Positions 9,783 through 41,057 are shown, counted from the first letter of the stretch. The stretch: 64,000 nucleotides of DNA from an uncultured Candidatus Bathyarchaeia archaeon (GCA_964623205.1 CAZUQX010000005.1:43826-107825); one strand, 5' to 3'. The notes: generated by a model from the sequence alone, not told the origin. A program made the numbers and translations.

Positions 9783-10700
9783 TCAGGCTATCGATTTTGC
9801 GATTTCGTAGGCGCTCTTGTAATCCAGTATGCCCTTCGGAGACTCCACAGCTCGCTTGAACAGTTCGGCTTCAATCTGGATTTTCAAGGGTCCTATCGCC
9901 AAGGCACCTATCCCAAATTTGCCGGGCAGAAACTCTTTGTTCTCATGGGTAGATTTCAGCCCTTCAATGCCCAAAGGCGGAACAGCATTGATGTCCCCAA
10001 CCACCTTACATTGCTTTCCGTAGTCTCTAAGTACGCTCAGAGGCAAAAGTTGAATGCCAGCAGCACCAGCAGCCAAAATTACGTCCGCCTCTTTTATGGC
10101 CTCACCTGTCTCATCAGGAGCAGCCGCCTGAACACCACAAACCTGCAGTGTGCCAAGCTCTTCGTTGATTTTGTTCGCAACAGCCGTTGCCCTATCTTGC
10201 TTCCGCGAGGTGAGGACAACTTTACTTCCTTCCATGGCGTATAAGCGAGCAGCAACTTGCCCGACGGGTCCGGTTCCTGCCAATATTGTTGCGTTCTTTC
10301 CTTTGAAATCGCCGAATCCTTTTTCTTTGAAGAGTTTTAGGGTTTTCGCCACTGCAGCTGAGGCAGTTGTGTATGCTCCTCTTGGGTCTATTATTACGGA
10401 CAGCTCGAATGGTGGAAACATGGATTTCTTTGCGACATCCAGGATTTCGAGGGCTTTTTCAACATCTTGGCCTCCGATGAAAATCTTAGTGTGTTTAGCG
10501 CCTCCCGGTCCGCGGGGAAACATTGCGTCTTGGATTATTCTTTTTGCATCCCGGAGGTCAACGTCGCTGTAACTGAGAATCTGCGCTTCTGGAAATAAAT
10601 CAATGGCAATCAAGATGTCGAAGGGACTTGCGTGCTTATCAGTGTCAAGAAATATAATGACCTTTTTTCGGCTTTTTTTTGGCGGAGAATTATTCGACAA
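9783..10700 (-). CDS. NAD(P)-dependent methylene-H4MPT dehydrogenase (MtdA/B/C family)
   Basis: SPFD, FPRGP, DPRGAYTTA, GTGPVG, DINAVPPLG, GALAIG motifs. Confidence 0.85.
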   Translation of the reverse strand: MSNNSPPKKSRKKVIIFLDTDKHASPFDILIAIDLFPEAQILSYSDVDLRDAKRIIQDAMFPRGPGGAKHTKIFIGGQDVEKALEILDVAKKSMFPPFELSVIIDPRGAYTTASAAVAKTLKLFKEKGFGDFKGKNATILAGTGPVGQVAARLYAMEGSKVVLTSRKQDRATAVANKINEELGTLQVCGVQAAAPDETGEAIKEADVILAAGAAGIQLLPLSVLRDYGKQCKVVGDINAVPPLGIEGLKSTHENKEFLPGKFGIGALAIGPLKIQIEAELFKRAVESPKGILDYKSAYEIAKSIA

Positions 10701-13818: not shown

Positions 13819-14226
13819 GTGAGGACGATGCCAAAGTTAAATGTCCTAGTTTTAACCGGTCGCACCATTGAACAGGGCAAAGGAAAAGAGATGGGCAAAC
13901 TATCAAAAGTATACTTAGACGACGTAGTTCAATGTAACATCGACCCCCAAGACATGAAAACTCTCAAACTGAGGCAGAACACCAACGTTAGAGTCACCAG
14001 CAAGTTTGGTAGTGTGGTTCTGAAAGCTGTGAAATCGCCTCGGGCTCCCCATCCCAAAATGATTTTTATTAGCTACGGTCCATGGGCAAGCGTCATCAGC
14101 GACCCTCGGACCAATGGGACAGGTATGCCCTCATTGAAGGGGTTTCCTGCAGAGATTGAACCGGCACCTGACGAGAAGGTGTTAAGCATTCAGGAACTAG
14201 TTAACCAACTCAAAATGGAGGAATAA
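13819..14226 (+). CDS. fwdD: Formylmethanofuran dehydrogenase subunit D
   Basis: LTGRTIEQG, GPWA, GTGMPSLKG; first gene of fwd operon. Confidence 0.9.
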   Translation: MRTMPKLNVLVLTGRTIEQGKGKEMGKLSKVYLDDVVQCNIDPQDMKTLKLRQNTNVRVTSKFGSVVLKAVKSPRAPHPKMIFISYGPWASVISDPRTNGTGMPSLKGFPAEIEPAPDEKVLSIQELVNQLKMEE

Positions 14227-14228
14227 AC

Positions 14229-15671
14229 TTGACAGTTATAACTGGGGTAACATGTCCAGTCTGCGGAACTTTCTGTGACGACATCGAAATAATTGTTGAT
14301 GACAACAATCATATTATTGAAGCTCGAAATGCGTGCGCTATGGGAGCAGCCAAATTCTTAAATTATTCTGCTCACCGTACAAAGAAACCTCTTATCCGAA
14401 AAAACGGTGAATTAGTCGAAGCTTCTATGGATGAAGCTGTTGAAAAAGCTGCTAAAATCCTCGTTGACGCAAACTATCCACTAATGTACGGTTGGAGCAA
14501 CACGAGTTGCGAAGCAATTCGTACGGGTTTGGAACTGGGGGAAGAGGTTGGTGCTGTTATGGATAACACCTCAACTGTCTGCCACGGACCCTCCATCCTG
14601 AGTGTACAAGACGTTGGTATACCGTCAGCAACCTTGGGACAGTTAAGGCATCGCGCAGACCTCATAATCTACTGGGCTAGCAATCCGTGGAGCGCACATC
14701 CACGGCATCCCGAACGCTATTCTATGTTCTCAGATGGCAGATTCGAAGGGAGCACATGGAAGAGCTATCTTTCACGATTAAGAGGTGTCATGTCCAAGAA
14801 AAAGATTCAAAGAGCCTCCAACTTGGTCTTGAAACGCGACTTCTGTTTTGCTCCTCAAGTTGAAGAAGGTCTTCCTTCTAGTGTACATCAGAAGAGACGT
14901 AGAACAATAGTCATAGACGTCCGCAAGACCCGCACAGCAGATGCAGCAGACTGTTTCCTTCAAGTTGAACCGGGCACCGATTACGAACTTCTTCAAGCTC
15001 TGCGTGTACTCATTAACGATGGAGAGCTAGACGTCGATGAAGCTGCAGGAATTCCCATTGAAACCCTTGAACAACTCGCTGACCTCTTGATAAACTGCAA
15101 ACTAGGCATCATCTTCTTCGGATTAGGATTAACCATGAGCAAAGGAAAACACCGCAACATAGACGCCGCCATCAACCTAACCCGCGACCTAAACAAACGC
15201 ACAAAATTCCTCATCATGCCCATGCGAGGACACTACAACGTAACCGGAGTTAACATAGTTTTCACATGGCAAACCGGATACCCTTTTGCTGTCGACCTAT
15301 CTAACGGCTACCCAAGATACAATCCCGGAGAAACCTCGGCGGTTGACATTCTATCTCGTGACGAAGCCGACGCCACCATGGTAATCGCCTCAGACCCCGT
15401 TGCCCATTTCCCAAGAGCCGCCTCCAAAAACATAGCAAAACATCCTCTTATCGCCATAGACCCAGAGGTGACCCCCACAACGATGCTTGCAGACGTCATA
15501 ATCCCTCCCGCCTTCGTCGGAATCGAGGCTGAGGGAACAGCCTACCGCATGGACCATGTTCCACTGCCCCTAAAAAAGGTGGTAGAGCCCCCAGAAACAT
15601 GTCTTTCAGATAAGGAAATCCTGCAGAGAATTCTTCAAAAAGTTCGAGAATTAAGGAGGGACACGAATTGA
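14229..15671 (+). CDS. fwdB: Formylmethanofuran dehydrogenase subunit B (Cys ligand)
   Basis: CPVCGTFCDD, VCHGP, PMRGHYNV, GTAYRMD. Confidence 0.95.
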   Translation: MTVITGVTCPVCGTFCDDIEIIVDDNNHIIEARNACAMGAAKFLNYSAHRTKKPLIRKNGELVEASMDEAVEKAAKILVDANYPLMYGWSNTSCEAIRTGLELGEEVGAVMDNTSTVCHGPSILSVQDVGIPSATLGQLRHRADLIIYWASNPWSAHPRHPERYSMFSDGRFEGSTWKSYLSRLRGVMSKKKIQRASNLVLKRDFCFAPQVEEGLPSSVHQKRRRTIVIDVRKTRTADAADCFLQVEPGTDYELLQALRVLINDGELDVDEAAGIPIETLEQLADLLINCKLGIIFFGLGLTMSKGKHRNIDAAINLTRDLNKRTKFLIMPMRGHYNVTGVNIVFTWQTGYPFAVDLSNGYPRYNPGETSAVDILSRDEADATMVIASDPVAHFPRAASKNIAKHPLIAIDPEVTPTTMLADVIIPPAFVGIEAEGTAYRMDHVPLPLKKVVEPPETCLSDKEILQRILQKVRELRRDTN

Positions 15672-17359
15672 CAGAACTCATCATTAAGAACGGATTTGTT
15701 TACGACCCCCTAAACCGAATAGACGGCGAAAAAATGGACATATCCATTAGGAATGGAAAGATTGTAAAAAGCGTTAAGGAAAAAGCGAATATCATCGACG
15801 CTTCAGGCATGGTGGTGATGCCCGGAGGAGTTGACATCCACACTCACATAGCAGGCGGCGAAGTTAATTCTGGTCGTCTCCTGAGACCTGAAGACCACGT
15901 TAAGGACGTTGAGGTTAAGACAGCTTTAACCCGTTCTGGAGTAGGCTACTCGATTCCATCTACATTCACTACAGGTTATCGTTACTCAAAGATGGGCTAC
16001 ACAACCCTCATGAACCCCTCTATGGCTCCCCTTGAGGCTCGCCACACCCATGAGGAACTAGCTGACATCCCCATGGTTGACAAGGCAGCCTATCCCCTCC
16101 TAGGAGACTGGTGGTTCAGCCTAGAACACATAAGAGACGGGTTAATCGAAGAGAACGCCGCCCACATAGCCTGGATGCTCCACGCCACAAGAGGATACGC
16201 CATCAAAATCGTCAACCCTGGAGGTCTAGAAGCATGGGGCTTCGGAAGAAACGTCAATGGTCTTGATGATACTGTACCCCACTTCAACATAACCCCCCGC
16301 GAAATCATCCGCGGATTATGCAAAGTGAACAAGCTTCTCAACCTTCCCCACACAATTCACGTTCACACCAACAACCTTGGAAAGCCTGGCAACTACGTCA
16401 CAGCTCTAGAGACCATGAAGTGTGTGGAAGATTTGGCACAGGGAGACAAACCTGTGATCCATATTACGCACATCCAGTTTTGTGCCTTCAAGGGCTCAGA
16501 TTGGAGTAGTCTAAGTTCTGGAGCAGGGGAAATCTCGAAGTACGTCAATAACCATAATCACGTAACCCTAGACATGGGGCAGGTGATCTTTAGCGACACG
16601 ACCACAATGACGGCTGACGGGCCATTCCAGTATGGTCTCTATCATCTTACTGGAAACAAATGGATGAATCACGATGTGGAAACAGAGACAAGCGGCGGAA
16701 TAGTGCCCTTCAAATACAAACGCTCAAGCGCTGTTCATGCAACCCAGTGGTCCATAGGACTTGAAATTGCCCTTCTGATCAAGGACCCGTGGAAAATTCT
16801 CATGACAACAGACCATCCTAACGGTGGTCCTTTCACTTCTTACCCCAAAATCCTTGCATGGCTCACGAGCCGAGCAGCGAGAGAGAAAACGTTAAGCAGA
16901 ATCAACAAGCGGGCTAGGAAGAAAAGTTTGTTGCCCAGCATCGACAGGGAACTTAGTCTTTACGAGCTAGCTATCGTAACGCGGGCAGGTCAAGCTAAGG
17001 TTCTCGGCCTGAAACCGAAGGGACATCTGGGAGTGGGAGCGGACGCCGATGTTGCCATCTATAAGATAAACCCTCACAAACTTGACATCTCTAAACAATA
17101 CAAGGTTGCTAGAAAAGCCTTCAAAAATGCCGCTTACACGATTAAAGACGGAGAAGTTGTGGTAAAGGATGGAGAAATTGTGAAACCAGTAAGCGGAAAG
17201 ACCTACTGGATCGATGTTACAACCTCCATGCCCCACGAAATTAATGATGACATAAAAAAGAAGTTCAGGGAGTATTGGACAGTAGAATATGAGAACTATC
17301 CCCTTCCAGAGGGCTTCATACACGCTTCTTCACCTATTCCAGTAAAGGCGGAGGTCTAA
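15668..17359 (+). CDS. fwdA: Formylmethanofuran dehydrogenase subunit A
   Basis: DIHTHIAG, KIVNPGG, HTNNLG.PGN, TTDHPNGG. Confidence 0.95.
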   Translation: MTELIIKNGFVYDPLNRIDGEKMDISIRNGKIVKSVKEKANIIDASGMVVMPGGVDIHTHIAGGEVNSGRLLRPEDHVKDVEVKTALTRSGVGYSIPSTFTTGYRYSKMGYTTLMNPSMAPLEARHTHEELADIPMVDKAAYPLLGDWWFSLEHIRDGLIEENAAHIAWMLHATRGYAIKIVNPGGLEAWGFGRNVNGLDDTVPHFNITPREIIRGLCKVNKLLNLPHTIHVHTNNLGKPGNYVTALETMKCVEDLAQGDKPVIHITHIQFCAFKGSDWSSLSSGAGEISKYVNNHNHVTLDMGQVIFSDTTTMTADGPFQYGLYHLTGNKWMNHDVETETSGGIVPFKYKRSSAVHATQWSIGLEIALLIKDPWKILMTTDHPNGGPFTSYPKILAWLTSRAAREKTLSRINKRARKKSLLPSIDRELSLYELAIVTRAGQAKVLGLKPKGHLGVGADADVAIYKINPHKLDISKQYKVARKAFKNAAYTIKDGEVVVKDGEIVKPVSGKTYWIDVTTSMPHEINDDIKKKFREYWTVEYENYPLPEGFIHASSPIPVKAEV

Positions 17360-17363
17360 AAAC

Positions 17364-18185
17364 TTGATATCCCTCAGCCCAAGACGGACGTTCAAGTTTC
17401 CAATAGAAGCAAAGAATATCAGTCCTGACATCTTCGCCAAAAGATCATCTAAAGAGATAGCGGCTCTGCAACTGTGGGAAGGAAACCGGAAACGGCTCCT
17501 CGGCGACCTTTTCAGCATAAAAAATGACAGCAGCATTCCTGCGGAAGAATTCACTATAAAGATTGAGGGAGACGCCAGCAAGTTGCGTAATATTGGCGCC
17601 GGCATGTCCATGGGGCGCATAGTTGTTGATGGGGACGCTGGCATGCATGTGGGCGAGGAGATGAGTGGAGGCGCCATAACAGTGGCTGGCAACGCAGGTT
17701 CGTGGGCCGGGTCAAAGATGAAGGGCGGAACCATAGAAATCAAAGGCGACGCAGGCGATTATATTGGTGCGTCGTATCGTGGAAGCACCCAAGGGATGAG
17801 CGGGGGAAAGATCATCATGCATGGAAACGCTGGATACGAAGTTGGATGTTTCATGAGAGACGGGCTCATCAAAATACTTGGAGATGTAGGATTGTTCGCT
17901 GGCATTCACATGGGCAATGGAACAATCTTCGTTCAAGGCAACTCTGAGGGAAGAGCTGGCGCGCAAATGATTAACGGAAAAATCGTTATAGCTGGTCAGG
18001 TTCCTGCTGTAATGCCTACTTTCACTATTGACAGCATTAAGCCCAAGGTCAAGGTTGACGGAGAAAAAATCGAAGGTCCATTCTACCGGTTTATCGGCGA
18101 TTTAGCTGATGATGGTAAAGGGAAATTGCTTGTTTCCAAGACAAAGAACCCGCATCTGAGCTCCTACGAAAAGTACCTAGAATAA
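17364..18185 (+). CDS. fwdC: Formylmethanofuran dehydrogenase subunit C
   Basis: G..M.GG.I beta-helix repeats, G.SYRG. Confidence 0.95.
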   Translation: MISLSPRRTFKFPIEAKNISPDIFAKRSSKEIAALQLWEGNRKRLLGDLFSIKNDSSIPAEEFTIKIEGDASKLRNIGAGMSMGRIVVDGDAGMHVGEEMSGGAITVAGNAGSWAGSKMKGGTIEIKGDAGDYIGASYRGSTQGMSGGKIIMHGNAGYEVGCFMRDGLIKILGDVGLFAGIHMGNGTIFVQGNSEGRAGAQMINGKIVIAGQVPAVMPTFTIDSIKPKVKVDGEKIEGPFYRFIGDLADDGKGKLLVSKTKNPHLSSYEKYLE

Positions 18186-18223: not shown

Positions 18224-19198
18224 GTGCCAAGCCAGAAACTGAGCGTTAACCGTGCTGCTTACAGTCTTGTCAAGAGGCTGTGTGATCGTGCAGACGAGTT
18301 CGGAGTTATTGTCAAAGAGGTGGAGTCAGGGGCAACTCTGATTGACGCTGGAATCACTGCTAAGGGAGGTTTCGCTGCAGGTCAGATAATAACAGAAATT
18401 TGTCTAGGGGGTCTCGGCAAGGCAGAAATACTCTATAAAAGGTATGGTGATCTTGAGCTTCCCTCAATCTTCGTTTACACAGATTATCCAGCTATATCGA
18501 CTTTGGGGTCCCAATTTGCTGGTTGGCAAATCAAGGTGGGAAAATATGTTGCTATGGGTTCTGGTCCAGCCCGTGCCTTATCTTTGAAGCCAAAGGAACT
18601 CTACCAAAAGATCAATTATAAAGACTCAGCAGATGTGGGCGTGCTGGTTCTCGAAACTTCCAAGGAGCCCACCGAAGAGGTTGTGAAAAAGATTTCTGAG
18701 GAATGTAGAGTTGACCCAAGTAACCTATTTCTAGTTTTGGTGCCAACTTCATCCGTTGCTGGCTCAACGCAAATTTCAGGAAGGATTGTGGAGACTGGCT
18801 TGCACAAGTTGACGGAGTTGGGTTTTGATCCAAAACTGGTTACTCACGGCTGTGGATATGCGCCCATAGCACCTGTGCATCCTAAATTGGCTCATGCCAT
18901 GGGGAGAACCAATGATGCGATAATTTACGCCGGCACTGCCTACTATACGGTAAGTTCTGATGATGATGAAGAGTTGGAGAATTTGTTAGATAGGGCGCCG
19001 GCTTCAGCGTCTAAAAGCTATGGGAAGCCTTTCATGGAAATCTTCAAAGAAGCCAACTACGATTTCTACAAGATTGACCCCGGATTGTTCGCCCCAGCAG
19101 TCTTCGTGGTCAACAACTCCAAAACAGGTAAAACCTTCCGCGCCGGAAAAATCGACGTGGAAGTCTTCAAGAAATCAATAAAGTTCCAAACGCTGTGA
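18224..19198 (+). CDS. mch: Methenyl-H4MPT cyclohydrolase
   Basis: LSVN, SQFAGW, GSGPARAL, MGRTND, FYKIDPGLFAPA. Confidence 0.95.
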   Translation: MPSQKLSVNRAAYSLVKRLCDRADEFGVIVKEVESGATLIDAGITAKGGFAAGQIITEICLGGLGKAEILYKRYGDLELPSIFVYTDYPAISTLGSQFAGWQIKVGKYVAMGSGPARALSLKPKELYQKINYKDSADVGVLVLETSKEPTEEVVKKISEECRVDPSNLFLVLVPTSSVAGSTQISGRIVETGLHKLTELGFDPKLVTHGCGYAPIAPVHPKLAHAMGRTNDAIIYAGTAYYTVSSDDDEELENLLDRAPASASKSYGKPFMEIFKEANYDFYKIDPGLFAPAVFVVNNSKTGKTFRAGKIDVEVFKKSIKFQTL

Positions 19199-19720: not shown

Positions 19721-20338
19721 ATGCATAGAGCCTTCGAACCTACAACGGGACGATTGAGAATGGACCCAAAAAAGATAGCATTCATGTCTTTAATGGGAGC
19801 CCTTGCAAACATCCTATTCCTGGTCTCATATCATGTAGGGCCTATCACTCAAGGAGTTTCACTTGATCTTTCCCTTTTAACGGTGTTCATAGCAGCCCTA
19901 TATGGAGGACCCGCAACAGGCTTTATCACAGGATTATTCGCTGGAATCTTTCCAGGGATTTACTACGGACCTTTAGGTACCGGTTCTTGGCTTGGTCTAA
20001 TAGGACTACCCATCGGAAAGGCGCTAACTGGACTTACAGCAGGTTTGCTCTATAAAGGTCTTGGTATGGATCAGAGGCATCGGAAATCAGTTTTGACCGT
20101 TCCTTTGATACTTGTTTCCTACATTCCAGAGTTTATCTATACAATAGCCTATTTTGTAACTCTATTACCCTATTTTATAGGAGGCGGTGGCTTCAGCATA
20201 CTTGTTTTCGTGTTACCGAAAGCATGGGCGGAAATACTCGTTATGAGCTTTTTCATGGCTGCTCTAGTGGGAAACCGTGGCTTCAGCACTTTTATCACCA
20301 ACTTCTTTGTCAGTTACGGAACTAAATCGAAATCTTGA
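19721..20338 (+). CDS. ECF-transporter S-component-like membrane protein
   Basis: N-terminal A.M.AL helix, D.S, YGGP..G, six TM helices; start probably 19760. Confidence 0.65.
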   Translation: MHRAFEPTTGRLRMDPKKIAFMSLMGALANILFLVSYHVGPITQGVSLDLSLLTVFIAALYGGPATGFITGLFAGIFPGIYYGPLGTGSWLGLIGLPIGKALTGLTAGLLYKGLGMDQRHRKSVLTVPLILVSYIPEFIYTIAYFVTLLPYFIGGGGFSILVFVLPKAWAEILVMSFFMAALVGNRGFSTFITNFFVSYGTKSKS

Positions 20339-20590: not shown

Positions 20591-21841
20591 ATGGCAGAAG
20601 CGCTAAAAAAAGGACTTAATGATCTTGGGGAATGGGTGGAGAAAGAAACTGTTTCTATAGTTGAACCCCTGAGGGCGGAGGCGAGAAAGCTACTTGAAGA
20701 TACAGAAGGCAAGCTTGCTGATCTTTTAGAGGCTAGTGAAAAACTGTTAGAGGATGCAGAGAAAGAGTTAGCAAAAGGCAGCCGCAAAACATACCGCCGA
20801 GCAAAATTCCTCCAAAAAATCTCTGGAAACTTTGCTAATCTAATAGATGGCATCAATATCCCCGATGAAATCTCTGGGGAAAGCCTTCATCAGGCTTCTA
20901 AAGAAATAGAAAAGATACTTGAAACAATAAGCCAAGAGAGAATGAAATATTTCCGCGCTATCGCACCTTACTTCATAATTTCTCGTCGAAGATTTGATGT
21001 AGCCTTAAAGAGGGCAGTTGATACATCTCGAAATCTTCAAACCTTTACCTCAGAAGAGTATGCTAAAGCTGAGAGTGCTGAAGGTGTTGCTTCTAGGATT
21101 GAAGAGCTACGTCAATCTTTAATGGAGTTAAATGAAGCGGAAAAGGCTAAAGAAACGAGAGAGCTGAGACGAGAACTTCTTGAGAAGAAGATAGCCGAAA
21201 ATCAACAGAACATGCGGGCAATACAGAGCAAAGATGCGGTAGTTGAATTCGCTCAAATAAACGCGAGAATTAAAGAGTTGGATGAAAACGTAAAACACGA
21301 CTTGCGACATCTGCAAAAACCCTTTCTGAAATTCCAAACTCTAGTTAACAGCCCAGGTTACAGTCTTTCCCCAGAAGCGACACAGAAGCTTGACGAATAC
21401 CTGAGGAACCCCTTTAAGGCCTTGGCAACAGAGAAGGAAGGCTATCCTCTCCTCAGAAATATTCTTCAAAAGATTGAGGACGCTATGGAAAAGGGTAAAC
21501 TGAAGCTGAAGAAGACTCGCTTGAGAAAGGCGAAAGATCAGATAGATAACATTCTCAACAAAACCGCTCTGCTCTCTCTTCATCAGAATTGCAGAGAAGC
21601 CTTCAACAAAAAAAGCCAGTTAGCAACATCTGGTGCAATAGGCGAGATTAGAAACAAGAGAGAAACGCTGCAGAAAAACTTGAAAGACTTGCAACGAAAA
21701 AAGAGACTCCTCGAAACTAGAGAAGCTGCTCTGGAGAAGGAAAACCAGCAGGTACGCGCTAGAGTTGAAGAGCAGAAAAAAGAATTGAAAAGAGTGGTTT
21801 TTGAACTGACCAGCCAGAATGTTAAAATTATCATAGATTAG
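20591..21841 (+). CDS. Hypothetical coiled-coil protein
   Basis: 416-aa E/K/L-rich heptad ORF. Confidence 0.75.
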   Translation: MAEALKKGLNDLGEWVEKETVSIVEPLRAEARKLLEDTEGKLADLLEASEKLLEDAEKELAKGSRKTYRRAKFLQKISGNFANLIDGINIPDEISGESLHQASKEIEKILETISQERMKYFRAIAPYFIISRRRFDVALKRAVDTSRNLQTFTSEEYAKAESAEGVASRIEELRQSLMELNEAEKAKETRELRRELLEKKIAENQQNMRAIQSKDAVVEFAQINARIKELDENVKHDLRHLQKPFLKFQTLVNSPGYSLSPEATQKLDEYLRNPFKALATEKEGYPLLRNILQKIEDAMEKGKLKLKKTRLRKAKDQIDNILNKTALLSLHQNCREAFNKKSQLATSGAIGEIRNKRETLQKNLKDLQRKKRLLETREAALEKENQQVRARVEEQKKELKRVVFELTSQNVKIIID

Positions 21842-21943: not shown

Positions 21944-22396
21944 ATGCAGGGGGATCGAATTGACCAGATTATCGATAAATATGTGGATGAAGAGGGTATT
22001 TTAATCCAGTTACTCTTAGATATTCAGCGTGAGTTTAATTGGATACCAAAGGAAGCGATAAAAAGAATAAGTGAGAGGCTCAAGATTCCTTACAGTCAAA
22101 TATTTCGGGTTGCAAGTTTTTACACTGCGCTAAGCTTGGAGCCTATTGGTCGTCATCTTGTTAGAGTTTGCGTCGGTACTGCTTGTTATGTTCGAGGAGG
22201 ACCAAGAATTCTGGATTCCCTCGAGATTAAATTAGGAATAAAATCCGGTGAGACAACAAAGGATGGTAAGTTCACCTTGAAGACCGTTAATTGTTTGGGT
22301 TGCTGCGCTCTGGGGCCTGTTATTGAAATAGATAGGCAATATTTTGGAAAGCTCAATTCCGCAAAGCTCGAGAAATTGCTAGCTAGCTATGATTAA
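21944..22396 (+). CDS. NuoE/HydC-like 2Fe-2S subunit
   Basis: VASFY, CVGTAC, CLGCCALGP. Confidence 0.9.
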   Translation: MQGDRIDQIIDKYVDEEGILIQLLLDIQREFNWIPKEAIKRISERLKIPYSQIFRVASFYTALSLEPIGRHLVRVCVGTACYVRGGPRILDSLEIKLGIKSGETTKDGKFTLKTVNCLGCCALGPVIEIDRQYFGKLNSAKLEKLLASYD

Positions 22397-22414
22397 CAGA
22401 AGAAGTGAAGAGTT

Positions 22415-24349
22415 ATGAAACCATTAAAATCTCCTTCTGATCTGGAAAAGCTCCGGAAGGATATACTTGCTAAAAAAAATCCTAAGAGGTTGGCCATTGC
22501 AGCATGTGTAAGTACAGGCTGTCAGGCTCTTGGTGTCCAAAAAGTCCTTGAAGCGTTTAATGAGGAAATCAAGAAGCATTGCTTGGAAGGAAAGGTGGAC
22601 ATCAAAGAGACTGGGTGCTTGGGTTTCTGCGAAAAGGGTCCAAGAATAGTCATCTATCCTGAAGAGATTTACTACTTCCAAGTACAGGCAAAAGATGTAC
22701 CCGAAATCGTATCGAAGACTTTGATTAAAAACGAAATTGTTGAAAGATTACTTTACACGGACTCAATCACTGGCAAAAAAGCACTCCATCTCTCTGATGT
22801 TCCATTCTATAAGTATCAAAACAGACTTCTTCTGGAAAGCAACAGTAAACTCGACCCAAAGAAGATAGAGGATTATCTAGCAATCGACGGTTACACCGCG
22901 TTACCAAAAGCTCTCTTCCAAATGACCCCAGAGCAAGTAATGAACGAAGTAAAGGACTCCAAGCTTCGGGGTCGGGGTGGAGGTGGTTTCCCAACCTACA
23001 TAAAATGGGAATCCTCCAGAAATGCTCCGGGAGAACCCAAATATGTCATCGTGAACTGTGACGAAGGCGATCCAGGAGCTTTCATGAACCGGGCACTGAT
23101 GGAAGGTAATCCTCACTCAATCCTTGAGGGGCTCATCATAGGGGCTTATGCGATAGGCTCCCATGAGGGATTTATCTATGTGCGTCAAGAGTATCCTCTC
23201 GCAGTAGAGAATATGGAGATGGCCATTAAACAAGCAGAAAAACTGAGACTCTTGGGTGAAGACATCCTTGGTTCGGGATTTGACTTTAAGGTTAAGATAC
23301 ATAGGGGAGCGGGTGCTTTTGTGTCCGGTGAGTCAAGCGCTCTAATGACTGCAATAGAGGGAAAAGTGGGCGAGCCAAGGCCAAAATATGTCCACACGTC
23401 CGAAAAAGGAGTTTGGGACAAGCCGAGCGCACTGAATAATGTTGAGACATGGGCTAACATACCCCTTATAATCAACAAGGGCGCTGAATGGTTTGCATCA
23501 ATTGGAACCGAAGGCAGCAAAGGCACCAAAATATTTGCGTTAGCAGGTAAAGTAAGCAACACTGGTTTAGTAGAGGTTCCATTTGGCGTATCATTAAGGG
23601 ATATTATCTACAAAATTGGTGGCGGAATCCGAAATGGAAAGAAATTCAAGGGGGTTCAAACTGGCGGTCCCTCTGGAGGCATCATCCCTGAGCAGCACTT
23701 AGATTCTCCTGTTGATTTTGACGAACTTACCAAGCTAGGTTCAATGATGGGCTCTGGCGGGATGATCGTAATGGACGAAGACACATGTATGGTAGAATTA
23801 GCCCGCTACTTTGTCAACTTCTTATGTGACGAGTCCTGCGGAAAGTGTACGCCTTGTCGGGAAGGATTAAGACAAGCCAGTATAATCTTGAACAGGATCA
23901 TTAGCGGTAAAGGAACAGAGGAAGATATAGAAAAACTTGGAAAAATCGCAGAGGTAACCAGCGTTGCTTCCCTATGCGCATTAGGAACAACATCTGCGAA
24001 TCCACTATTAACCACCATTCGATACTTCAAACACGAATACGAAGCACATATTAATGAAAAAAGATGCCCAGCACTAGTCTGTAAGAACCTTACATCTTAT
24101 TATATTGACCCGGAAAAATGCCAAGCATGCATGATTTGTCACAGAAACTGTCCAGTTGATGCGATAATCGGAGAGAAGATGAAAATTCACGTCATTGATC
24201 AAACCAAATGCATCAAGTGCGGAAGTTGCTATGACCTGTGTCCGCCTAGATTCCAAGCAGTGAAAAAAATATCGGGTGAACCAGTTCCTCCGCCCATTCC
24301 AGAAGAAGAGAGACTGATCAAAAGAGTGAGGAAAGGGAAGCAAAAATAA
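22415..24349 (+). CDS. NuoF/HydB-like FMN/NAD(P)H subunit with N-terminal 2Fe-2S and C-terminal 2x[4Fe-4S]
   Basis: GRGGGGFP, NCDEGDPGAFM, GESSAL, NNVET, GGPSGG, CGKCTPCREG, two CxxCxxCxxxCP. Confidence 0.92.
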   Translation: MKPLKSPSDLEKLRKDILAKKNPKRLAIAACVSTGCQALGVQKVLEAFNEEIKKHCLEGKVDIKETGCLGFCEKGPRIVIYPEEIYYFQVQAKDVPEIVSKTLIKNEIVERLLYTDSITGKKALHLSDVPFYKYQNRLLLESNSKLDPKKIEDYLAIDGYTALPKALFQMTPEQVMNEVKDSKLRGRGGGGFPTYIKWESSRNAPGEPKYVIVNCDEGDPGAFMNRALMEGNPHSILEGLIIGAYAIGSHEGFIYVRQEYPLAVENMEMAIKQAEKLRLLGEDILGSGFDFKVKIHRGAGAFVSGESSALMTAIEGKVGEPRPKYVHTSEKGVWDKPSALNNVETWANIPLIINKGAEWFASIGTEGSKGTKIFALAGKVSNTGLVEVPFGVSLRDIIYKIGGGIRNGKKFKGVQTGGPSGGIIPEQHLDSPVDFDELTKLGSMMGSGGMIVMDEDTCMVELARYFVNFLCDESCGKCTPCREGLRQASIILNRIISGKGTEEDIEKLGKIAEVTSVASLCALGTTSANPLLTTIRYFKHEYEAHINEKRCPALVCKNLTSYYIDPEKCQACMICHRNCPVDAIIGEKMKIHVIDQTKCIKCGSCYDLCPPRFQAVKKISGEPVPPPIPEEERLIKRVRKGKQK

Positions 24350-24353
24350 GGGG

Positions 24354-25802
24354 TTGAAACGAATGGAAGGCGGTGAAAAAGAAATCACGATGCAGATTGA
24401 CAGTATAGATGTCAATGCCAAAGAAGGAACAAGCATCTATGATGTCGCAAAGAAAGTTGGCATAAAAATTCCTACACTCTGTCATAATGAGGCTCTTGAA
24501 CCTTTTGGGGCTTGCCGTGTCTGTTCGGTGGAAATTACTGACAAGCGAGGAAGGAAAAAGATTGTAACTTCATGCAATTATCCGGTTTTCGATGGGCTCG
24601 TAGTTGAGACAAAATCTGAAAAGGTTTTCAGAACCCGTCAACTGCTTCTTGAGCTGTTGCTTGCTCGATGTCCAAATGCTAAGAAGATTCAGGATTTGGC
24701 AAGGGAATATGGCATTGAGAAGCCAAGTTTTTGGGTAGGTGATCCAGAGGAGGATTGTATCCTCTGCGGCTTGTGCGCTCGCGTCTGTGAAGAAAAAGTT
24801 GGCGTTTCTGCTATCAATTTTGCGAATCGAGGCGTGGAACGAGAAGTTACTGCTCCCTATCACACAATATCCGATGATTGCGTGGGATGCGGTGCATGTG
24901 CTATTATATGTCCAACAGACTCGAAAAAAGTCAGAATAAACACCTATCCCATGCTAGAGGAGGACATCAGGGAAGCAGAGGAACAGTTTCTGAACGGAAC
25001 ACGAGATGAACTCTTAGGCGTTTATAAAGAGATTTTTGCAGCAAAAAGCACTATTGACGGGCAAGACGGAGGAATGGCTACTGCTCTACTCCTTTCAGGA
25101 TTTGAAAAAGGTCTGTTTGATGCCGCTATTGTCGTTAAGAGAACAGTGGGGTACAAAGCAGAGGCAGTTATCGCAGAGACAGCTGATGAAATACTGAATG
25201 CTCGAAGAACGAAATATTCACGGGTTAAGATGATGTCAAAAATCGGGGAGATGGTGGAGAAAGGCAAAAGAAAGATTGCCTTTGTTGGTACCCCATGCGA
25301 GATTCGAACAGGAAGAAAAATTCAGCAGCAACTACTGAGTAAATATCCTGACCTAAAGATTACCATAGTGGGGTTATTCTGTTTTGAAGCCTTTGATTAC
25401 GAGAAGCTGAAGGAAGCGACACAGCGTTTGTTGGGCGTTGATTTGGACAAGGCAGAAAAAACTCAAATCCAGAAAGGGAAGTTCATAGTGCAGATTGATG
25501 GAAACGAATATTCTGCGAAGGTAAAGGAGTTCCACGATGCAATTCAAGGCGGATGTGCTTATTGTAACGACTTCGCTGGCAGAATCGCTGATGTTTCTGT
25601 TGGTTCAGTGGGAAGCGATGATGGTTATTCAACAGTGATAGTGCGGTCAGATACAGGAAAAAGGCTTCTGGAGAACGCTGATTGCATCAAAGGAGATGTA
25701 AACGTAGAAGACGTTGTCAAACTGGCTAAATTCAAAAAGAGCAGAGCAGACAAGAATTTTTCGCCCATTATCGAAGGGGCACAAAACTACAAGGAATCAT
25801 AG
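24354..25802 (+). CDS. NuoG/HydA-like Fe-S N-terminus fused to an FrhB-type F420-binding domain
   Basis: IPTLC..GACRVC..SC; CILCGLCARVC; CVGCGACAIICP; then GQDGG, VGTPC, GLFC, CAYCND, ADVSVG. Confidence 0.85.
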   Translation: MKRMEGGEKEITMQIDSIDVNAKEGTSIYDVAKKVGIKIPTLCHNEALEPFGACRVCSVEITDKRGRKKIVTSCNYPVFDGLVVETKSEKVFRTRQLLLELLLARCPNAKKIQDLAREYGIEKPSFWVGDPEEDCILCGLCARVCEEKVGVSAINFANRGVEREVTAPYHTISDDCVGCGACAIICPTDSKKVRINTYPMLEEDIREAEEQFLNGTRDELLGVYKEIFAAKSTIDGQDGGMATALLLSGFEKGLFDAAIVVKRTVGYKAEAVIAETADEILNARRTKYSRVKMMSKIGEMVEKGKRKIAFVGTPCEIRTGRKIQQQLLSKYPDLKITIVGLFCFEAFDYEKLKEATQRLLGVDLDKAEKTQIQKGKFIVQIDGNEYSAKVKEFHDAIQGGCAYCNDFAGRIADVSVGSVGSDDGYSTVIVRSDTGKRLLENADCIKGDVNVEDVVKLAKFKKSRADKNFSPIIEGAQNYKES

Positions 25803-35426: not shown

Positions 35427-36824
35427 ATGAGTGCAGCCAAATTACTGGCTGATCCAGTCGAGAAGTGGCTTGGTTCTGTTGCTTATTCCCAAAGTGGAAG
35501 TAAAGACACGGAAACCAACTATAGAAAACACTTTGGCAGGTTCCTGAGTTTTACTGAAAAAACTGCAACAGAGATCTTGTCAGAATATGAAGCCTTGGAA
35601 GACTTCAAAGATGTTAGAAGATTCAGAGACAAATTTGCTGATCAGATCATGAGTTGGATAATTTCATTGAGGCAAGAGGGATTAGAAGATAGCACTATCA
35701 AAACTATGGTGGGAGCAGTTCAAAGTTTCCTGAAATATAACAGAATCCAAATTGGTTTCATCCCAATGGCTCGTGGTCACGTGGTTTATCATAATCGAGA
35801 CATTACACGAAAAGAGATTGCAGACATTCTTAATACGTGCCTAGTCAGAGATAGAGCATTCTATGTGGTTATGGCTCAAAGCGGATTAAGACCTACTTCA
35901 TTATGTAAATTGAAGATCAAAGACATAGAGTATGACAGACTGCTAAGGGAAGAGAGTCCTGTTAAGATTGATGTTCCCTTGATGGCAGCCAAAGGAAAGT
36001 ATGATCACTACTTCAGTTTCATATCTTCTGAGGCTATACAAAGTCTGAAGTCCTACCTTAAAACAAGAGCTGTTAACTCAGAGAGTTACCTTTTCGTCAA
36101 GTCTGGAACAGTAAATGAACCTATGACTAGTGTTGGCTTTTCTGCTCAGTTCAACAGAACTGTTAGAAAGCTAAGGAAAAAAGGAGTTCTGAAATTTGAA
36201 CTGAGAAAGGACAAGCCTAGTGAACTAAGACTGTATAGTCTCCGTAAATTCTTCAGAAAACATGCAGGACAAGCAGGACATGACTACGTTAATTTTTGGT
36301 TAGGACACATAAGTTCCCTTGGAGTTGATCTGCATTATATCACAAGGGATCCAGAATATCATAGGAAGTTGTATGCTGAAAAAGCAGCTCCACATCTCAG
36401 AATTGAAACAAAAACTCCTTCTGAAACTGAGAAACAGATCGAAGATCTCAGAAAACAACTGGATGAGACACGAGAGAAACTGGAAGAGAGAGACAAACAG
36501 TTCAATAGTGTCTTGAAAAAGCTAGAGCCTCTGACCAAATTTACTGAGATGTTTGAGAACTCAAGAGAGCTGGAACTTTTCTCAAAATTGCTCGTCAAGT
36601 CAGGGGAAGTCTACAGGAGAACTGGGGAGTTAGGAGAAGACTTCGACAAGGTAATAGAGGATTTGGAGAAAGAAGGGCTAGAGACAGGGTATCCAGAGAA
36701 GCTAGGTTACGATGTGGATAGAGTCCAAGAGCTGCTGCAATACGTCAATCCTGCCTTGGGCAGAATCTTGTTGCTAGATGCTCTCGAAAGAAAGAGAAAG
36801 GCTGCCAAGAAGGAGAGTGCATAA
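35427..36824 (+). CDS. Tyrosine recombinase/integrase with C-terminal coiled coil
   Basis: RDRA...SGLRP, KGK, YSLRKFF, LGH, D.HY. Confidence 0.9.
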   Translation: MSAAKLLADPVEKWLGSVAYSQSGSKDTETNYRKHFGRFLSFTEKTATEILSEYEALEDFKDVRRFRDKFADQIMSWIISLRQEGLEDSTIKTMVGAVQSFLKYNRIQIGFIPMARGHVVYHNRDITRKEIADILNTCLVRDRAFYVVMAQSGLRPTSLCKLKIKDIEYDRLLREESPVKIDVPLMAAKGKYDHYFSFISSEAIQSLKSYLKTRAVNSESYLFVKSGTVNEPMTSVGFSAQFNRTVRKLRKKGVLKFELRKDKPSELRLYSLRKFFRKHAGQAGHDYVNFWLGHISSLGVDLHYITRDPEYHRKLYAEKAAPHLRIETKTPSETEKQIEDLRKQLDETREKLEERDKQFNSVLKKLEPLTKFTEMFENSRELELFSKLLVKSGEVYRRTGELGEDFDKVIEDLEKEGLETGYPEKLGYDVDRVQELLQYVNPALGRILLLDALERKRKAAKKESA

Positions 36825-36826
36825 CG

Positions 36827-37105
36827 GTGGACATCTCAGTAACCCTTGGCTACGCTATAGCCATAGCCACTGTTACAGGATCTGTTGCAGTCATAGCCTT
36901 GATGGCAGTGGCAGCTATCAGAAAGAGCCTACAAATATTCAAGCCATCAACAAGAAAGACAGAGATGGAACAGATCCCCACGAAGAGCCTTCCAATAAAT
37001 GAGAACGTCTGGACTTGCCCTTACTGTGGATCCCAAAATGAAAAGACCAATTTTGTCTGTGGAAATTGCAGATCTCCAAGAAAACACTTGGGGATCCATT
37101 CCTAA
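36827..37105 (+). CDS. Small TM protein with RanBP2-like Zn finger
   Basis: TM helix, then WTCPYCGSQN...CGNC. Confidence 0.7.
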   Translation: MDISVTLGYAIAIATVTGSVAVIALMAVAAIRKSLQIFKPSTRKTEMEQIPTKSLPINENVWTCPYCGSQNEKTNFVCGNCRSPRKHLGIHS

Positions 37106-37363
37106 TTTTTTCAGAAGTCCTTTCCCTCAAGGATCTCTGCAGCAATTTTGAAGCAGACTCTACAGAATGGCTTCAAGCCCTTAACGATAATGAGGACATC
37201 TGTTTTTCCACATCTAGGACATTTTCCAAAGGTAATAGTTATCTCTGATTCGTCACTCAAACCCTTCACACTCCATTATGATGAAACAGATTTGTGTATG
37301 TTTGGGTATTAATGTGGATAAGTTAGAAAATAAGGGTTACTGTAAACAGCTAGAGAGAATCAG

Positions 37364-37504
37364 ATGCCTAAGAAAAGAGTTTATGCAACGATTCGAGAGG
37401 AATTGGTTGTGTGGATGGATAACGAAGTTAAGAAACTACGTTTTGCATCCAGAAGCCATGCTATAGAATATGCCCTAACCAAACTAAAAGAGAAGACAAA
37501 GTGA
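37364..37504 (+). CDS. Ribbon-helix-helix (CopG/Arc-like) DNA-binding protein, 46 aa
   Basis: Manual translation MPKKRVYATIREELVVWMDNEVKKLRFASRSHAIEYALTKLKEKTK (beta strand, helix, F.SRS.AIE.AL); below ORF cutoff. Confidence 0.8.
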   Translation: MPKKRVYATIREELVVWMDNEVKKLRFASRSHAIEYALTKLKEKTK

Positions 37505-37591
37505 CGAGGTAGTATCTACGAAGAGCCCTGCAATGGACATAACCACGAAGAGTCTTCTCTCCTTGACCACATCGTTAATGATATATAGTTA

Positions 37592-38347
37592 ATGAACATG
37601 AATAGTTTATCCATGCGTCTAACAATATTACTTTGTTTCATGGTCTTACTGATAGGATTGGCTGGTGGTTTTTATCTTGCTCTTTTCATGCAAGATCAAA
37701 TACAGCTTTTAGTTGGAGCAGCAATTATTTTTGCGTTCCTAAATTGGTTGGGTTCAGGAACTGCATTACTAGGACTTGCTAAGGAGTGGTATAAAGAAAA
37801 ACGTGAAAAGGTGGAATTTGAAATGATATACCAACCACAAATCAATCCACATCTTTTCGAGCCAATTTTGGAAATGGTAAACATTACTGGGCAAAGACTC
37901 AATATATCACGAAAGTTCCTCAAAGTGGGCATAGCAAATAATGGTGGAAAAGTAGCTAAACAATGCAGAGCAACTCTTCAGTTCAAGAGGGCTACTGACG
38001 ATACGAGGAATCCGTCATTAGAACCCAAAACTCTTTTCTGGGAAACTGGAGAAACCTATAAAGACATAGGAATAAAACGGACAGAATATCTGTATGTTGT
38101 TCTTTCTGATAGCCGTCTAGGTTCACAGATACCTGCTGATGCAGACTTGTTTGCATTTATTTCCACACCTGAAACTGTTAAAATGATCCCTGCAAATTTC
38201 TTCAGGGCACAAGATGGTTTTGGTGTTGGTGACTCCGATTTTGAATTGCTTGTAACCACGGAAAGTGGGGAAAGTTTAACGAGCAACTTGCGAGTTCATG
38301 TAACAAATAATTGGAACGAATTGACAATGGAACAGATTGAGGACTAA
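37592..38347 (+). CDS. Hypothetical protein with two N-terminal TMs and a beta-rich domain
   Basis: 251-aa ORF, TATA-like ATATATAG upstream. Confidence 0.7.
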   Translation: MNMNSLSMRLTILLCFMVLLIGLAGGFYLALFMQDQIQLLVGAAIIFAFLNWLGSGTALLGLAKEWYKEKREKVEFEMIYQPQINPHLFEPILEMVNITGQRLNISRKFLKVGIANNGGKVAKQCRATLQFKRATDDTRNPSLEPKTLFWETGETYKDIGIKRTEYLYVVLSDSRLGSQIPADADLFAFISTPETVKMIPANFFRAQDGFGVGDSDFELLVTTESGESLTSNLRVHVTNNWNELTMEQIED

Positions 38348-38384
38348 CTTCTGTTGTGGAATTTCTAGTATCCCAGTAACTTTC

Positions 38385-38765
38385 TCTTGACTCTTCCCCT
38401 GAACCCTCAGCTTAATATGGAAACCACATCTACGAAGGAGCTACCTACCTAGAGACTCTTCGCAACACCTACCAAGACCACAACGAAGAGTCTTCCTACC
38501 ACCTAGACCAAAGCACAGCCTAAATTTTCACCAAGCTCTCTTCTTTCTCAAAGTCCTACGAAGGATCTCTTCCCTCTCAAACAACACAGAGCAGCCATAG
38601 CCCTGAAGCCTAAGATAACACCATTCACCTGCAGCTCTAGCTTGGTTACACAACACCAAGACCTCTCCTAGAGACAATGCCTAAGCTCTCCCCTTTCTCT
38701 CCAAGAATAGCTAGTGCAGGTTCATACAATCCAACGAATGTCTCCCCAAACTCTCTACCTTCCCC
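38385..38765. repeat. C/A-skewed non-coding region with short direct and inverted repeats
   Basis: AGACTCTTCG/CGAAGAGTCT inverted pair (38453-62/38484-93); duplicated AAGCTCTC..CTTTCTC and CCAAGACC. Confidence 0.6.
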
Positions 38766-39009
38766 ATTCTAAGTTATTAGTTAGAGTATTCAGGAACTCC
38801 TCATATTGACGAGTTTCCCCTGTCAAGCATCATAAATTGGACATTCCATACAGAATGTCAAGTTTGAGCTTGACCTATTCGACATATAATGCTCCTAACA
38901 ATGTTTAAGGTAACATTCTGCTCTGCTAAATCTTGAGTTAGCCTAGAAACCATGCTGAAAGTAAACATTTTTATGTTGAAAAGTTGACATTAAATAGGGA
39001 TAATGTCCA

Positions 39010-39861: not shown

Positions 39862-39958
39862 ATCTCACGAAGAGGCTATTACAAAAAACAGTAGATGAAC
39901 TATTGCAACAAACAAGATTATGCAAAAGTCATAGCTTGTGCTTAGAATTTTTGTTGTT

Positions 39959-40454: not shown

Positions 40455-40470
40455 GTTTTTTTACCCCGTT

Positions 40471-40549
40471 TTGTTTCTATGTTCTATTGTTCTTCTGTTT
40501 TACTTCAATACATATCATATCTTATTACTTAATATACCCTTTATTTCCC
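40471..40549 (-). promoter_or_regulatory. 79-bp promoter/leader block, copy 1
   Basis: 77/79 identical to 61745-61823; contains GAAATAAAGGG-TATATTAAG BRE/TATA on the minus strand. Confidence 0.75.
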
Positions 40550-41032: not shown

Positions 41033-41057
41033 TAGCTTTCCCTTATTTTTTGCTTTC

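Follow-up and report, generated by a model that had tools for sequence, protein, structure and literature searches.

Within a 64,000 nt stretch of DNA from an uncultured Candidatus Bathyarchaeia archaeon (GCA_964623205.1 CAZUQX010000005.1:43826-107825; the whole stretch is referred to herein as the window), positions 21944-25802 hold a three-gene operon, bfuC, bfuB and bfuA-frhB, which by its predicted cluster content encodes a Bfu-type core, with clusters B1, B3/B4, B5 and C1 as well as the B2 His/Cys site all present. In the third product, an F420-dehydrogenase (FrhB) domain occupies the place of the H-cluster, as is expected of an F420-Bfu. It is likely that the operon specifies a soluble enzyme of this BfuABC type, in which the deazaflavin F420 (as F420/F420H2), nicotinamide adenine dinucleotide (phosphate) (NAD(P)) and ferredoxin would be coupled by flavin-based bifurcation or confurcation. 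What is new is that one order of Bathyarchaeia commonly carries the operon, and that links to mer-cofC and to cdh genes are seen there. The window belongs to contig C5 of the source genome (G000), an assembly of 1.86 Mb in 31 contigs that is 96 % complete.

A first-pass annotation, made from the sequence alone, had described a HydABC/Bfu-type module of three genes at this position, and three co-directional open reading frames (ORFs) on the + strand do indeed occupy it (Table 1). The gaps between them are 18 bp (bfuC/bfuB) and 4-13 bp (bfuB/bfuA). As the product of the third gene is identical to a database protein (P0004) of 479 aa that begins MEGGEKEI, its true start is probably the ATG at 24363. 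Pfam domains and ligand alignments agree with the NuoE-like gene and the full-length NuoF-like gene (N-terminal [2Fe-2S], His/Cys site and two extra [4Fe-4S]) of that annotation, and each of the motifs it quoted was located. The conservation counts that follow refer to 66 BfuB, 65 BfuC and 73 BfuA orthologues. Locus counts refer to the best 80 of 504 stretches that encode relatives in GTDB species genomes, as do the numbers prefixed with L, apart from L001 and L002, which are stretches of G000 itself.

BfuC matches the Pfam family 2Fe-2S_thioredx (170 bits) and exceeds the cut-off of the NCBIfam NuoE equivalog NF005722 (146.5 bits vs 141). The ligands of its C1 [2Fe-2S] cluster, Cys76, 81, 117 and 121, are kept in 65/65 orthologues. 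BfuB displays a longer arrangement, running from a 2Fe-2S_thioredx domain (residues 21-101) through Complex1_51K (179-350; 150 bits), SLBB and NADH_4Fe-4S (462-545; 101 bits) to two Fer4 domains (562-610), with DPGAFM at residues 219-224, GESSAL at 305-310 and HINEKRCPALVC at 545-556. Conservation of its ligands is close to complete, extending to 64-66 of the 66 orthologues for the B5 Cys residues, and to all 66 for the ligands of B1 and B2 and for the eight Cys of B3/B4. At the B2 site, Cys458, His545, Cys551 and Cys556 align with C438, H525, C531 and C536 of the A. mobile NiFe-BfuB (7t2r_B). According to passages of Schut et al. (2022, Front Microbiol 13:946711; PMC9304861), non-bifurcating homologues are without clusters B2-B5 and the B2 His, the latter being absent from just 8 of 1558 BfuB sequences; the same source, together with passages of the WorABCSL paper (PMC12318220), assigns B3/B4 to the ferredoxin side.

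Comparison with solved structures places BfuB amongst subunits of the same kind. Its best matches in the PDB are 7t2r_B (775 bits), 9mqx_B (742), 8a6t_B (720) and 7q4v_B (716), and of the top nine (613-775 bits), those that can be identified by name or paper are Bfu-type subunits, the other high-scoring chains being named NADH dehydrogenase, Fe-hydrogenase beta, NfnB and HoxF. NAD-dependent formate dehydrogenase beta (353 bits) and the NuoF of complex I (at most 341.5 bits) follow lower down, and BfuB falls below the cut-offs of the NCBIfam NuoF equivalog models. With regard to a complex I/Fpo N-module, no nuo or fpo genes lie near the operon in the window, and BfuB carries the extra clusters.

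The third subunit, BfuA-FrhB (hereafter BfuA), combines a BfuA [2Fe-2S] domain with a C-terminal two-thirds made up of a ferredoxin-like domain and an FrhB-type module. Pfam recognises Fer2_4 at residues 9-88, a Fer4_7/Fer4_21 domain with two [4Fe-4S] motifs at 132-189, FrhB_FdhB_N at 228-295 (57 bits vs a cut-off of 22) and FrhB_FdhB_C at 306-453 (131 vs 23.3), so that the F420 domain proposed for this terminus is borne out by the domain search. The motifs GQDGG (236-240), VGTPC (311-315), GLFC (340-343) and CAYCND (401-406, the CxxCxD of the first-pass annotation) fall within it. Sixteen Fe-S Cys are kept overall in 72-73 of the 73 orthologues; for those of the N-terminal wiring the figure is 73/73, and for the four of the FrhB-type domain (Cys315, 343, 401 and 404) it is 72-73. 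The QDGG motif, which presumably contacts the flavin adenine dinucleotide (FAD), also aligns with Fsr and FrhB; in an alignment of 19 sequences G239 is invariant, and Q237, D238 and G240 occur in at least 90 %.

HydA and NuoG carry a motif for a His-ligated [4Fe-4S] cluster in the segment between the [2Fe-2S] and the two [4Fe-4S] clusters. The corresponding segment of BfuA (residues 96-125) has a single Cys, and this cluster is thus seemingly absent. The 'HydA-type wiring' given to the gene at first therefore stands as Fe-S wiring, although in a reduced form of one [2Fe-2S] and two [4Fe-4S] clusters. Pfam reports neither an H-cluster nor a molybdopterin domain, again as first described. An [FeFe]-hydrogenase identity finds no hydrogenase large-subunit domain in Pfam, and the model FeFe_hydrog_A6 covers residues 11-259 only (128 vs 765 bits). 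Amongst solved structures, residues 11-189 match best the WorA small subunit 9mqx_A (141 bits), residues 174-468 align with residues 13-322 of Fsr (7np8_A; phmmer E 1.5e-45), and FrhB (9r51_B) is found at E 1.4e-37. The AlphaFold model of BfuA, made from 19 sequences, reaches a mean predicted local distance difference test score (pLDDT) of 78.6, and its best Foldseek matches are 8riu_B (E 9.7e-25, TMt 0.69), 7np8 and 9r51_B (root mean square deviation 2.2 A, TMt 0.82). NCBIfam scores lie under the equivalog cut-offs for frhB (175 vs 331.5) and FpoF (140 vs 475), as expected for a paralogue.

Relatives of the operon are numerous. Of 8000 candidates scored in a word-index protein search, 2794 matched at E <= 1e-3; identity is 70-100 % for the best 120, and those of them that are named derive mostly from Bathyarchaeota metagenome-assembled genomes. 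An exhaustive search of 50 %-identity representatives gave 12068 matches, 383 of them at 1e-30 or better; full-length representatives of the same span number two in the top 150, P0124 (71 %) and P0126 (42 %). By record title, the 80 best loci divide into 46 from Bathyarchaeia, 33 from Halobacteriota/Methanobacteriota and one labelled Acidoferrum, the hosts outside Bathyarchaeia comprising ANME-1/Methanophagales (ANME, anaerobic methanotrophic archaea), Methanotrichaceae, Ca. Methanolliviera (Methanoliparia), Ca. Methanospirareceae and unclassified lineages. The nearest named record is a Candidatus Bathyarchaeum chromosome (91 % identical). A full-length copy occurs in 15 of 301 Bathyarchaeia genomes drawn at 80 % completeness or more, all in two families of one order. 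At genus level, near-full-length copies are found in 12 of 24 relatives and fragments in 2 more.

The genes largely remain together, bfuB adjoining the fusion gene in 74/80 loci and bfuB and bfuC both being present in 69/80. Their order is C-B-A in most loci and A-C-B in 12. In a quick BfuB tree, rooted at its midpoint without an outgroup, a Bathyarchaeia group (40 rows) is cleanly split from a euryarchaeal group (27 rows), and the family groups with the Methanothrix orthologues. One locus, L032 (DATIXS010000266.1), is filed under 'Candidatus Acidoferrum sp.' and holds the whole mer-cofC-bfuCBA cluster; since its BfuB nests inside Bathyarchaeia, beside a Bathyarchaeota sequence, it is probably a misbinned archaeal contig.

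The surroundings of these relatives connect the operon to the tetrahydromethanopterin (H4MPT) Wood-Ljungdahl pathway. The order mer-cofC-bfuC-bfuB-bfuA is found in seven Bathyarchaeia loci (L028, L029, L032, L033, L034, L059 and L076; for example L033:1707-7470), and cofC is present in eight; in L028, L031 and L034, cdhA, cdhB and cdhC lie downstream as well. The gene cdhA is adjacent in 16/80 loci. In 11 of the loci (L035, L036, L037, L039, L043, L056, L057, L064, L065, L067 and L069) the three genes are embedded in a cdh operon, cdhA-bfuA-bfuC-bfuB::cdhB-cdhC-cdhD, with a fused BfuB frame of 813-829 aa that ends in CdhB (the epsilon subunit; Pfam CO_dh, residues 636-802 in L064, L064:3614-12968), and these fused proteins form a monophyletic clade in the BfuB tree. 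An enzyme coupling the three pools would predict just such links, with an F420 enzyme (Mer), an F420 synthesis gene and the ferredoxin-level carbon monoxide dehydrogenase/acetyl-CoA synthase (CODH/ACS). The first-pass annotation had pointed to the closeness of fwd and mch, and in the window mch does end 2.7 kb upstream of the operon, with mtd and ftr present too; through mer-cofC-bfuCBA and the cdh-embedded relatives, the connection with the pathway proves stronger than that annotation knew.

Two further observations concern these neighbours. In the source genome, cdhC and cdhD lie at the very edge of contig C5 (G000:C5:3-2480, beginning at base 3), about 66 kb from the operon; searches of the whole assembly found neither cdhA nor cdhB, which were probably lost at the contig break. 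In an ANME-1 (Methanophagaceae) locus, mtrE directly follows the bfuA-frhB gene (L062:7558-8508).

With regard to mechanism, complex formation, the use of F420, bifurcation, its direction and the choice of nucleotide are what we infer for the encoded proteins. Going by homologous solved enzymes, a hydride from F420H2 would pass to the FAD of the FrhB-type domain, and single electrons would continue by way of the [4Fe-4S] cluster of that domain (Cys315, 343, 401 and 404), the two [4Fe-4S] clusters and the [2Fe-2S] cluster of BfuA to B1 and the flavin mononucleotide (FMN) of BfuB. The four mid-potential electrons that two F420H2 supply would be split at the FMN/B1/C1/B5 site, two of them leaving as a hydride to NAD(P)+ and two, at low potential, travelling via the mobile C1 of BfuC and the B3/B4 clusters of BfuB to ferredoxin (Fd). 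The overall reaction, 2 F420H2 + NAD(P)+ + 2 Fd(ox) <-> 2 F420 + NAD(P)H + 2 Fd(red), would run near equilibrium and be reversible. In this Candidatus Bathyarchaeum genome, the enzyme would probably bridge the F420 pool on which Mer draws and those of ferredoxin and NAD(P) in the H4MPT Wood-Ljungdahl pathway, whichever way that pathway runs. Because genes for its synthesis are missing, F420 itself would be taken up from outside.

Several observations weigh against this assignment. The position of the fifth B2 ligand, Cys476 in the A. mobile NiFe-BfuB (7t2r_B), is Ile496 in the window, and for this reason the site is probably of the Zn type, as in FeFe, Nfn and Wor enzymes; in passages of Schut et al. 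(2022; PMC9304861), Thr is given for this position in about two-thirds of BfuB sequences. The model of BfuA is poor over residues 131-200 (pLDDT 31-59), which include both [4Fe-4S] motifs, and the geometry of the relay is thus not fixed. F420 (-340 to -360 mV) and NAD(P) (-320 mV) are nearly isopotential, and a plain oxidoreductase would accordingly be feasible. The statement of the first-pass annotation that no enzyme of this architecture has been characterised holds in the literature searched, where no purified or assayed member was met.

The main weakness concerns the supply of F420. In this genome CofG has no match and CofH scores 27 bits; CofD has no match with TIGR01819 or PF01933, CofC reaches 31 bits (under its cut-off), and tblastn searches with CofD from Bathyarchaeia (one from the same genus) and with CofC find nothing. 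The gap is not peculiar to this assembly, for CofD is lacking in 23 of the 24 genomes of the genus, two single-contig genomes included, and the one that has it has no fusion gene. Across the source genome and 40 relatives (G000-G040), CofE occurs in 36/41 and CofD in 7/41. Among 8 fusion-bearing genomes of the sister family, 6 have CofD and none has a CofG above its cut-off. The first-pass annotation had named a genome without F420 biosynthesis as grounds for abandoning its reading; nominally this is such a genome, only CofE (289 bits, above cut-off) having been found. Since CofE is retained along with Mer (449 bits vs a cut-off of 348.7) and three FrhB proteins, salvage of Fo or F420 is nonetheless likelier than refutation. 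The same gap in synthesis was described by Yu et al. (2023) for the cultured relative Ca. B. ligniniphilus, for which dependence on partner organisms was suspected and FrhB with HdrABC was suggested as the supplier of F420H2; Loh et al. (2021) called the source of F420H2 for Mer unclear. Neither Fno nor FrhA reaches its cut-off in this genome, and no F420-reducing hydrogenase was found in it.

Of the other FrhB-domain proteins in this genome, one of 718 aa (L001:7914-10070, equal to G000:C3:135913-138069, +) joins an RnfD/NqrB-like membrane domain (PF03116, residues 105-354) to two [4Fe-4S] motifs and FrhB_N/C. Between its FrhB part and that of the window BfuA, identity is 58 %; similar frames of 688-758 aa are encoded in 7 genomes of the genus, and P0125 is a representative of 716 aa. 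This protein may be a membrane-bound F420 enzyme of a type not known to have been described. The second, of 505 aa (L002:6821-8338, equal to G000:C7:10820-12337, +), has two CBS domains and is encoded with three Proton_antipo_M (NuoL/M/N-like) genes immediately upstream; it resembles an FpoF-like input subunit next to an Fpo/Nuo-like complex on contig C7, in contrast to papers on Bathyarchaeia, which state that FpoF is lacking.

The alternatives to the proposed three-way coupling differ in which of its partners they alter. The first-pass annotation took the enzyme to be NADP(H)-specific, the second Glu of GEETAL, which in complex I discriminates against NADPH (a rule for which no confirming paper was found), being replaced in BfuB. 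In favour of this, GEETAL is present in the NAD-linked A. woodii HydB and A. mobile NiFe-BfuB and in 9bov_B, and GESTAL in the NADP+-using T. kivui HydB. The family as a whole has GES(S/T)AL: of the 67 loci that cover the region, 53 show SGESSAL, 14 show SGESTAL and none shows GEETAL, and GESTAL occurs in 5/5 loci of the Methanothrix clade. The genome, in which no Fno was found, would also profit from a further source of NADPH. Against NADP specificity, A. mobile WorB (9mqx_B) has exactly the GESSAL of the window BfuB, and a His where T. kivui HydB has Arg340 (His327 in the window, kept in 65/66 orthologues). WorABCSL reduces NAD+ and its structure has NAD(H) on the FMN, as given in passages of PMC12318220, whilst T. 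kivui HydABC runs on NADP+ with Arg340 of HydB named as a contact. GESSAL does not, then, carry the case for NADP, and the loss of the second Glu would seem to be a family trait that does not decide the nucleotide. Nor do the papers on Stn and on the Caecomyces NuoEF name a determinant for NAD versus NADP. Energetics bear on the question as well. With the potentials in Table 1 of Schut et al. (2022; PMC9304861, passages), namely -360 mV for F420, about -280 mV for NAD, about -500 mV for Fd and about -380 mV for NADPH, the mean of NAD and Fd is -390 mV, with F420 near it, and the mean of NADPH and Fd is -440 mV. F420 being well above the latter, F420H2 would be unable to drive bifurcation with NADP, and an NADP-linked enzyme should work only by confurcation toward F420 reduction. 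Roughly speaking, NAD appears the likeliest nucleotide, if short of an even chance, NADP a less likely one and the use of both slightly less likely again; an enzyme specific for NADP(H) is accordingly a possible but doubtful reading.

A plain F420H2:NAD(P)+ oxidoreductase, in which the extra clusters are inherited and ferredoxin takes no part, would suit the near-equal potentials noted above and would give a genome without Fno an activity that it needs, and biochemical data on members of the family are absent from the searched literature. It is, however, improbable, as Bathyarchaeia, ANME-1 and Methanothrix alike conserve every ligand of B2-B5 and C1, clusters that non-bifurcating homologues do not have, and the fusion of the ferredoxin-facing C-terminus of BfuB to CdhB in 11 loci points to a low-potential partner. 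Still less credible is a substrate or carrier other than F420 for the FrhB-type domain. The missing CofC, CofD, CofG and CofH would fit such a view, and proteins of this fold with other substrates do exist, Arabidopsis HCAR (5dqr_E) being itself in the Foldseek list of the BfuA model (E 8e-15, 20 % identity). Set against this are the retention of Mer, CofE and two further FrhB-domain genes, the mer or cofC genes that adjoin the operon in 7-8 relatives, the CofD of the sister family, the synthesis gap shared with Ca. B. ligniniphilus, and the fact that the closest relatives in sequence and fold are all F420 enzymes. A final alternative makes the proteins a plug-in module that docks on CODH/ACS or Fwd, with low-potential electrons bypassing free ferredoxin. 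The cdh-embedded loci with bfuB::cdhB favour it, as do the FrhB-type subunits bound to CODH and Fwd in Ca. Ethanoperedens (8riu, 8rja), the Bfu core described in passages of PMC12318220 as a 'plug' on WOR filaments, and the short distance from the window operon to fwd/mch. For the window itself it is nevertheless unlikely: BfuB is unfused there, two unrelated genes separate the operon from fwd/mch, the cdh genes are far off on the contig, and the fused form belongs to a separate clade.

If the three-pool enzyme is taken as the working interpretation, a broader and distinctly tentative picture may be drawn, in which F420-Bfu would act as the redox hub of the H4MPT Wood-Ljungdahl pathway in Bathyarchaeia, connecting scavenged F420 (Mer), NAD(P) (the MtdA-type dehydrogenase) and ferredoxin (Fwd, CODH/ACS). 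A sister clade would be hard-wired to CODH/ACS through BfuB-CdhB, F420H2 bifurcation then driving the reduction of CO2 to CO directly, or the oxidation of CO confurcating into F420 without free ferredoxin. The window operon would be the free-ferredoxin form, and its host dependent on neighbours for the cofactor.

In anoxic sediments, Bathyarchaeia belong to the archaea present in greatest abundance, and both acetogenesis and methoxy-group oxidation in them proceed through Mer, an enzyme that requires F420H2. A conserved F420-Bfu linked to the Wood-Ljungdahl pathway is a concrete and testable candidate for that supply. Should the proposal be true, this would be the first Bfu enzyme to use a deazaflavin, and a natural case of a cofactor-auxotrophic organism that keeps four F420 enzymes. 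Were the CdhB-fused relatives to work as suggested, a bifurcating module would dock directly onto CO2 reduction; were the enzyme instead to turn out a plain oxidoreductase between F420 and NAD(P), cluster content would fail as a rule for predicting bifurcation within the Bfu family.

Table 1. Features of the operon and of its surroundings in the window (positions counted from the first nucleotide of the window)
Feature	Position	Strand	Description
bfuC	21944-22396	+	150 aa; NuoE/HydC-like subunit, one [2Fe-2S] cluster (C1)
bfuB	22415-24349	+	644 aa; NuoF/HydB-like flavoprotein, predicted FMN and NAD(P)(H) site, all Bfu-specific clusters
BfuB N-terminal [2Fe-2S] domain (B5)	22475-22717	+	Cys31, 36, 68, 72; Pfam residues 21-101
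GESSAL motif	23327-23344	+	nucleotide pocket of BfuB (residues 305-310), by sequence
His327 of BfuB	23393-23395	+	at position of T. kivui HydB Arg340
Cys458 of BfuB	23786-23788	+	upstream ligand of B2 site; aligns with C438 of 7t2r_B
BfuB B1 [4Fe-4S] and B2 His/Cys site	23837-24082	+	B1 Cys475, 478, 481, 521; by alignment to 7t2r_B
BfuB C-terminal 2x[4Fe-4S] (B3, B4)	24119-24244	+	proposed ferredoxin-facing; two CxxCxxCxxxCP motifs, residues 569-580 and 599-610
bfuA-frhB	24363-25802	+	[2Fe-2S], 2x[4Fe-4S], C-terminal FrhB-type domain (FAD plus [4Fe-4S], predicted); frame open from TTG at 24354 (482 aa)
BfuA N-terminal wiring	24378-24920	+	[2Fe-2S] Cys43, 54, 57, 74; two [4Fe-4S] Cys135, 138, 141, 145 and Cys176, 179, 182, 186
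FrhB_FdhB_N and FrhB_FdhB_C	25035-25712	+	F420H2-oxidase/F420-reductase fold; [4Fe-4S] Cys315, 343, 401, 404; GQDGG
ftr	6453-7427	-	formylmethanofuran:H4MPT formyltransferase; Pfam FTR, FTR_C
MtdA/MtdB-type methylene-H4MPT dehydrogenase	9783-10700	-	pyridine-nucleotide type; Pfam Mpt_N 80.5 bits
fwdD, fwdB, fwdA, fwdC	13819-18185	+	NCBIfam equivalogs above cut-off for fwdB, fwdA, fwdC
fwdD	13819-14226	+	Molydop_binding protein, read as fwdD by position
mch	18224-19198	+	NCBIfam equivalog above cut-off
ECF-transporter S-component gene	19721-20338		between mch and operon
416-aa protein	20591-21841		no clear family; between mch and operon

All of fwd, mch, mtd and ftr lie at most 16 kb from the operon. 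Of the two genes between mch and bfuC, the one for the 416-aa protein is conserved and also precedes the operon in 7 close relatives. The S component of the energy-coupling factor (ECF) transporter was considered as a deazaflavin importer and dropped, being next to the operon in 0/80 loci. Elsewhere in the window, a gene of the phage-integrase family (35427-36824) and a stretch of low GC content (40001-46000; 0.33-0.37 vs about 0.44 elsewhere), which holds an 883-aa ORF (43128-45779, -), may mark an integrated element at 35427-46000.

Amongst known systems, the nearest is the F420-Bfu of Methanosaetaceae. The architecture, for which the first-pass annotation knew of no characterised enzyme, is not new to the literature: passages of Schut et al. 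(2022; PMC9304861) already predict an uncharacterised Type 1 'F420-Bfu' from 2 sequences (BfuB clade 45, in some Methanosaetaceae), for which the oxidation of NADH and Fd to form F420H2 is proposed. The term is used in that one paper in the literature searched, where no description of the operon in Bathyarchaeia was found. The gene set and the proposed chemistry (NADH + Fd <-> F420H2) are the same as those set out here, and Methanothrix/Methanocrinis loci L068, L071, L073 and L074 are orthologous to the window operon, with the same C-B-A order and identities of 48-50 % for BfuA and 63-65 % for BfuB. The hosts differ, in that those within Bathyarchaeia are not methanogens and are without the Fo synthase, this genus being also without CofC and CofD. 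Those passages on F420-Bfu give no link to mer, cofC or cdh, all of which are seen in the present analysis.

A second precedent comes from ANME archaea, in which passages of Chadwick et al. (2022, PLoS Biol 20:e3001508; PMC9012536) note FrhB8 beside NuoF and thioredoxin-like genes. This FrhB8 or 'NuoF-Trx' cluster encodes an FrhB paralogue with a divergent NuoF and a thioredoxin-like protein; it is called almost exclusive to ANME in those passages, which propose for it no function, Bfu affiliation or bifurcation. It would appear to be the same as the ANME-1/Methanophagales loci recovered herein (L041, L045, L049, L051-L053, L061 and L062; BfuA 53-59 % and BfuB 66-69 % identical to the window), a match made by description rather than by sequence.

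Of the enzymes with solved structures, A. mobile WorABCSL (9MQX) resembles the window operon in its WorB, the second-best solved match of BfuB, which shares both GESSAL and KY(V/I)H, and in its WorA (9mqx_A), which is like the N-terminal part of BfuA and has the same reduced cluster set. It is unlike the operon in being a bacterial tungsten aldehyde oxidoreductase whose third substrate is oxidised on WorSL, and in that WorA ends in a zinc finger. The HydABC enzymes of T. maritima (7P5H), A. woodii (7Q4V) and T. kivui (8A6T), together with the NiFe-HydABCSL (7T2R), have a BfuBC core whose predicted cofactors are identical to those of the window, with BfuB scores of 656-775 bits; the window has no H-cluster domain or hydrogenase subunits, and electrons would pass instead via the FAD of the FrhB-type domain. 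That domain has its own counterparts in Fsr (7NP8) and the F420-reducing CODH of Ca. Ethanoperedens (zeta subunit, 8RIU), where the same cassette of two [4Fe-4S] clusters followed by FAD plus [4Fe-4S] carries electrons from FAD through the [4Fe-4S] of the domain to the two [4Fe-4S] clusters of the ferredoxin domain, as described in passages of PMC10229431 and PMC11493965. In the window, by contrast, the cassette is fused to the [2Fe-2S] domain of BfuA and would deliver to a NuoEF-type core, rather than to siroheme or CODH.

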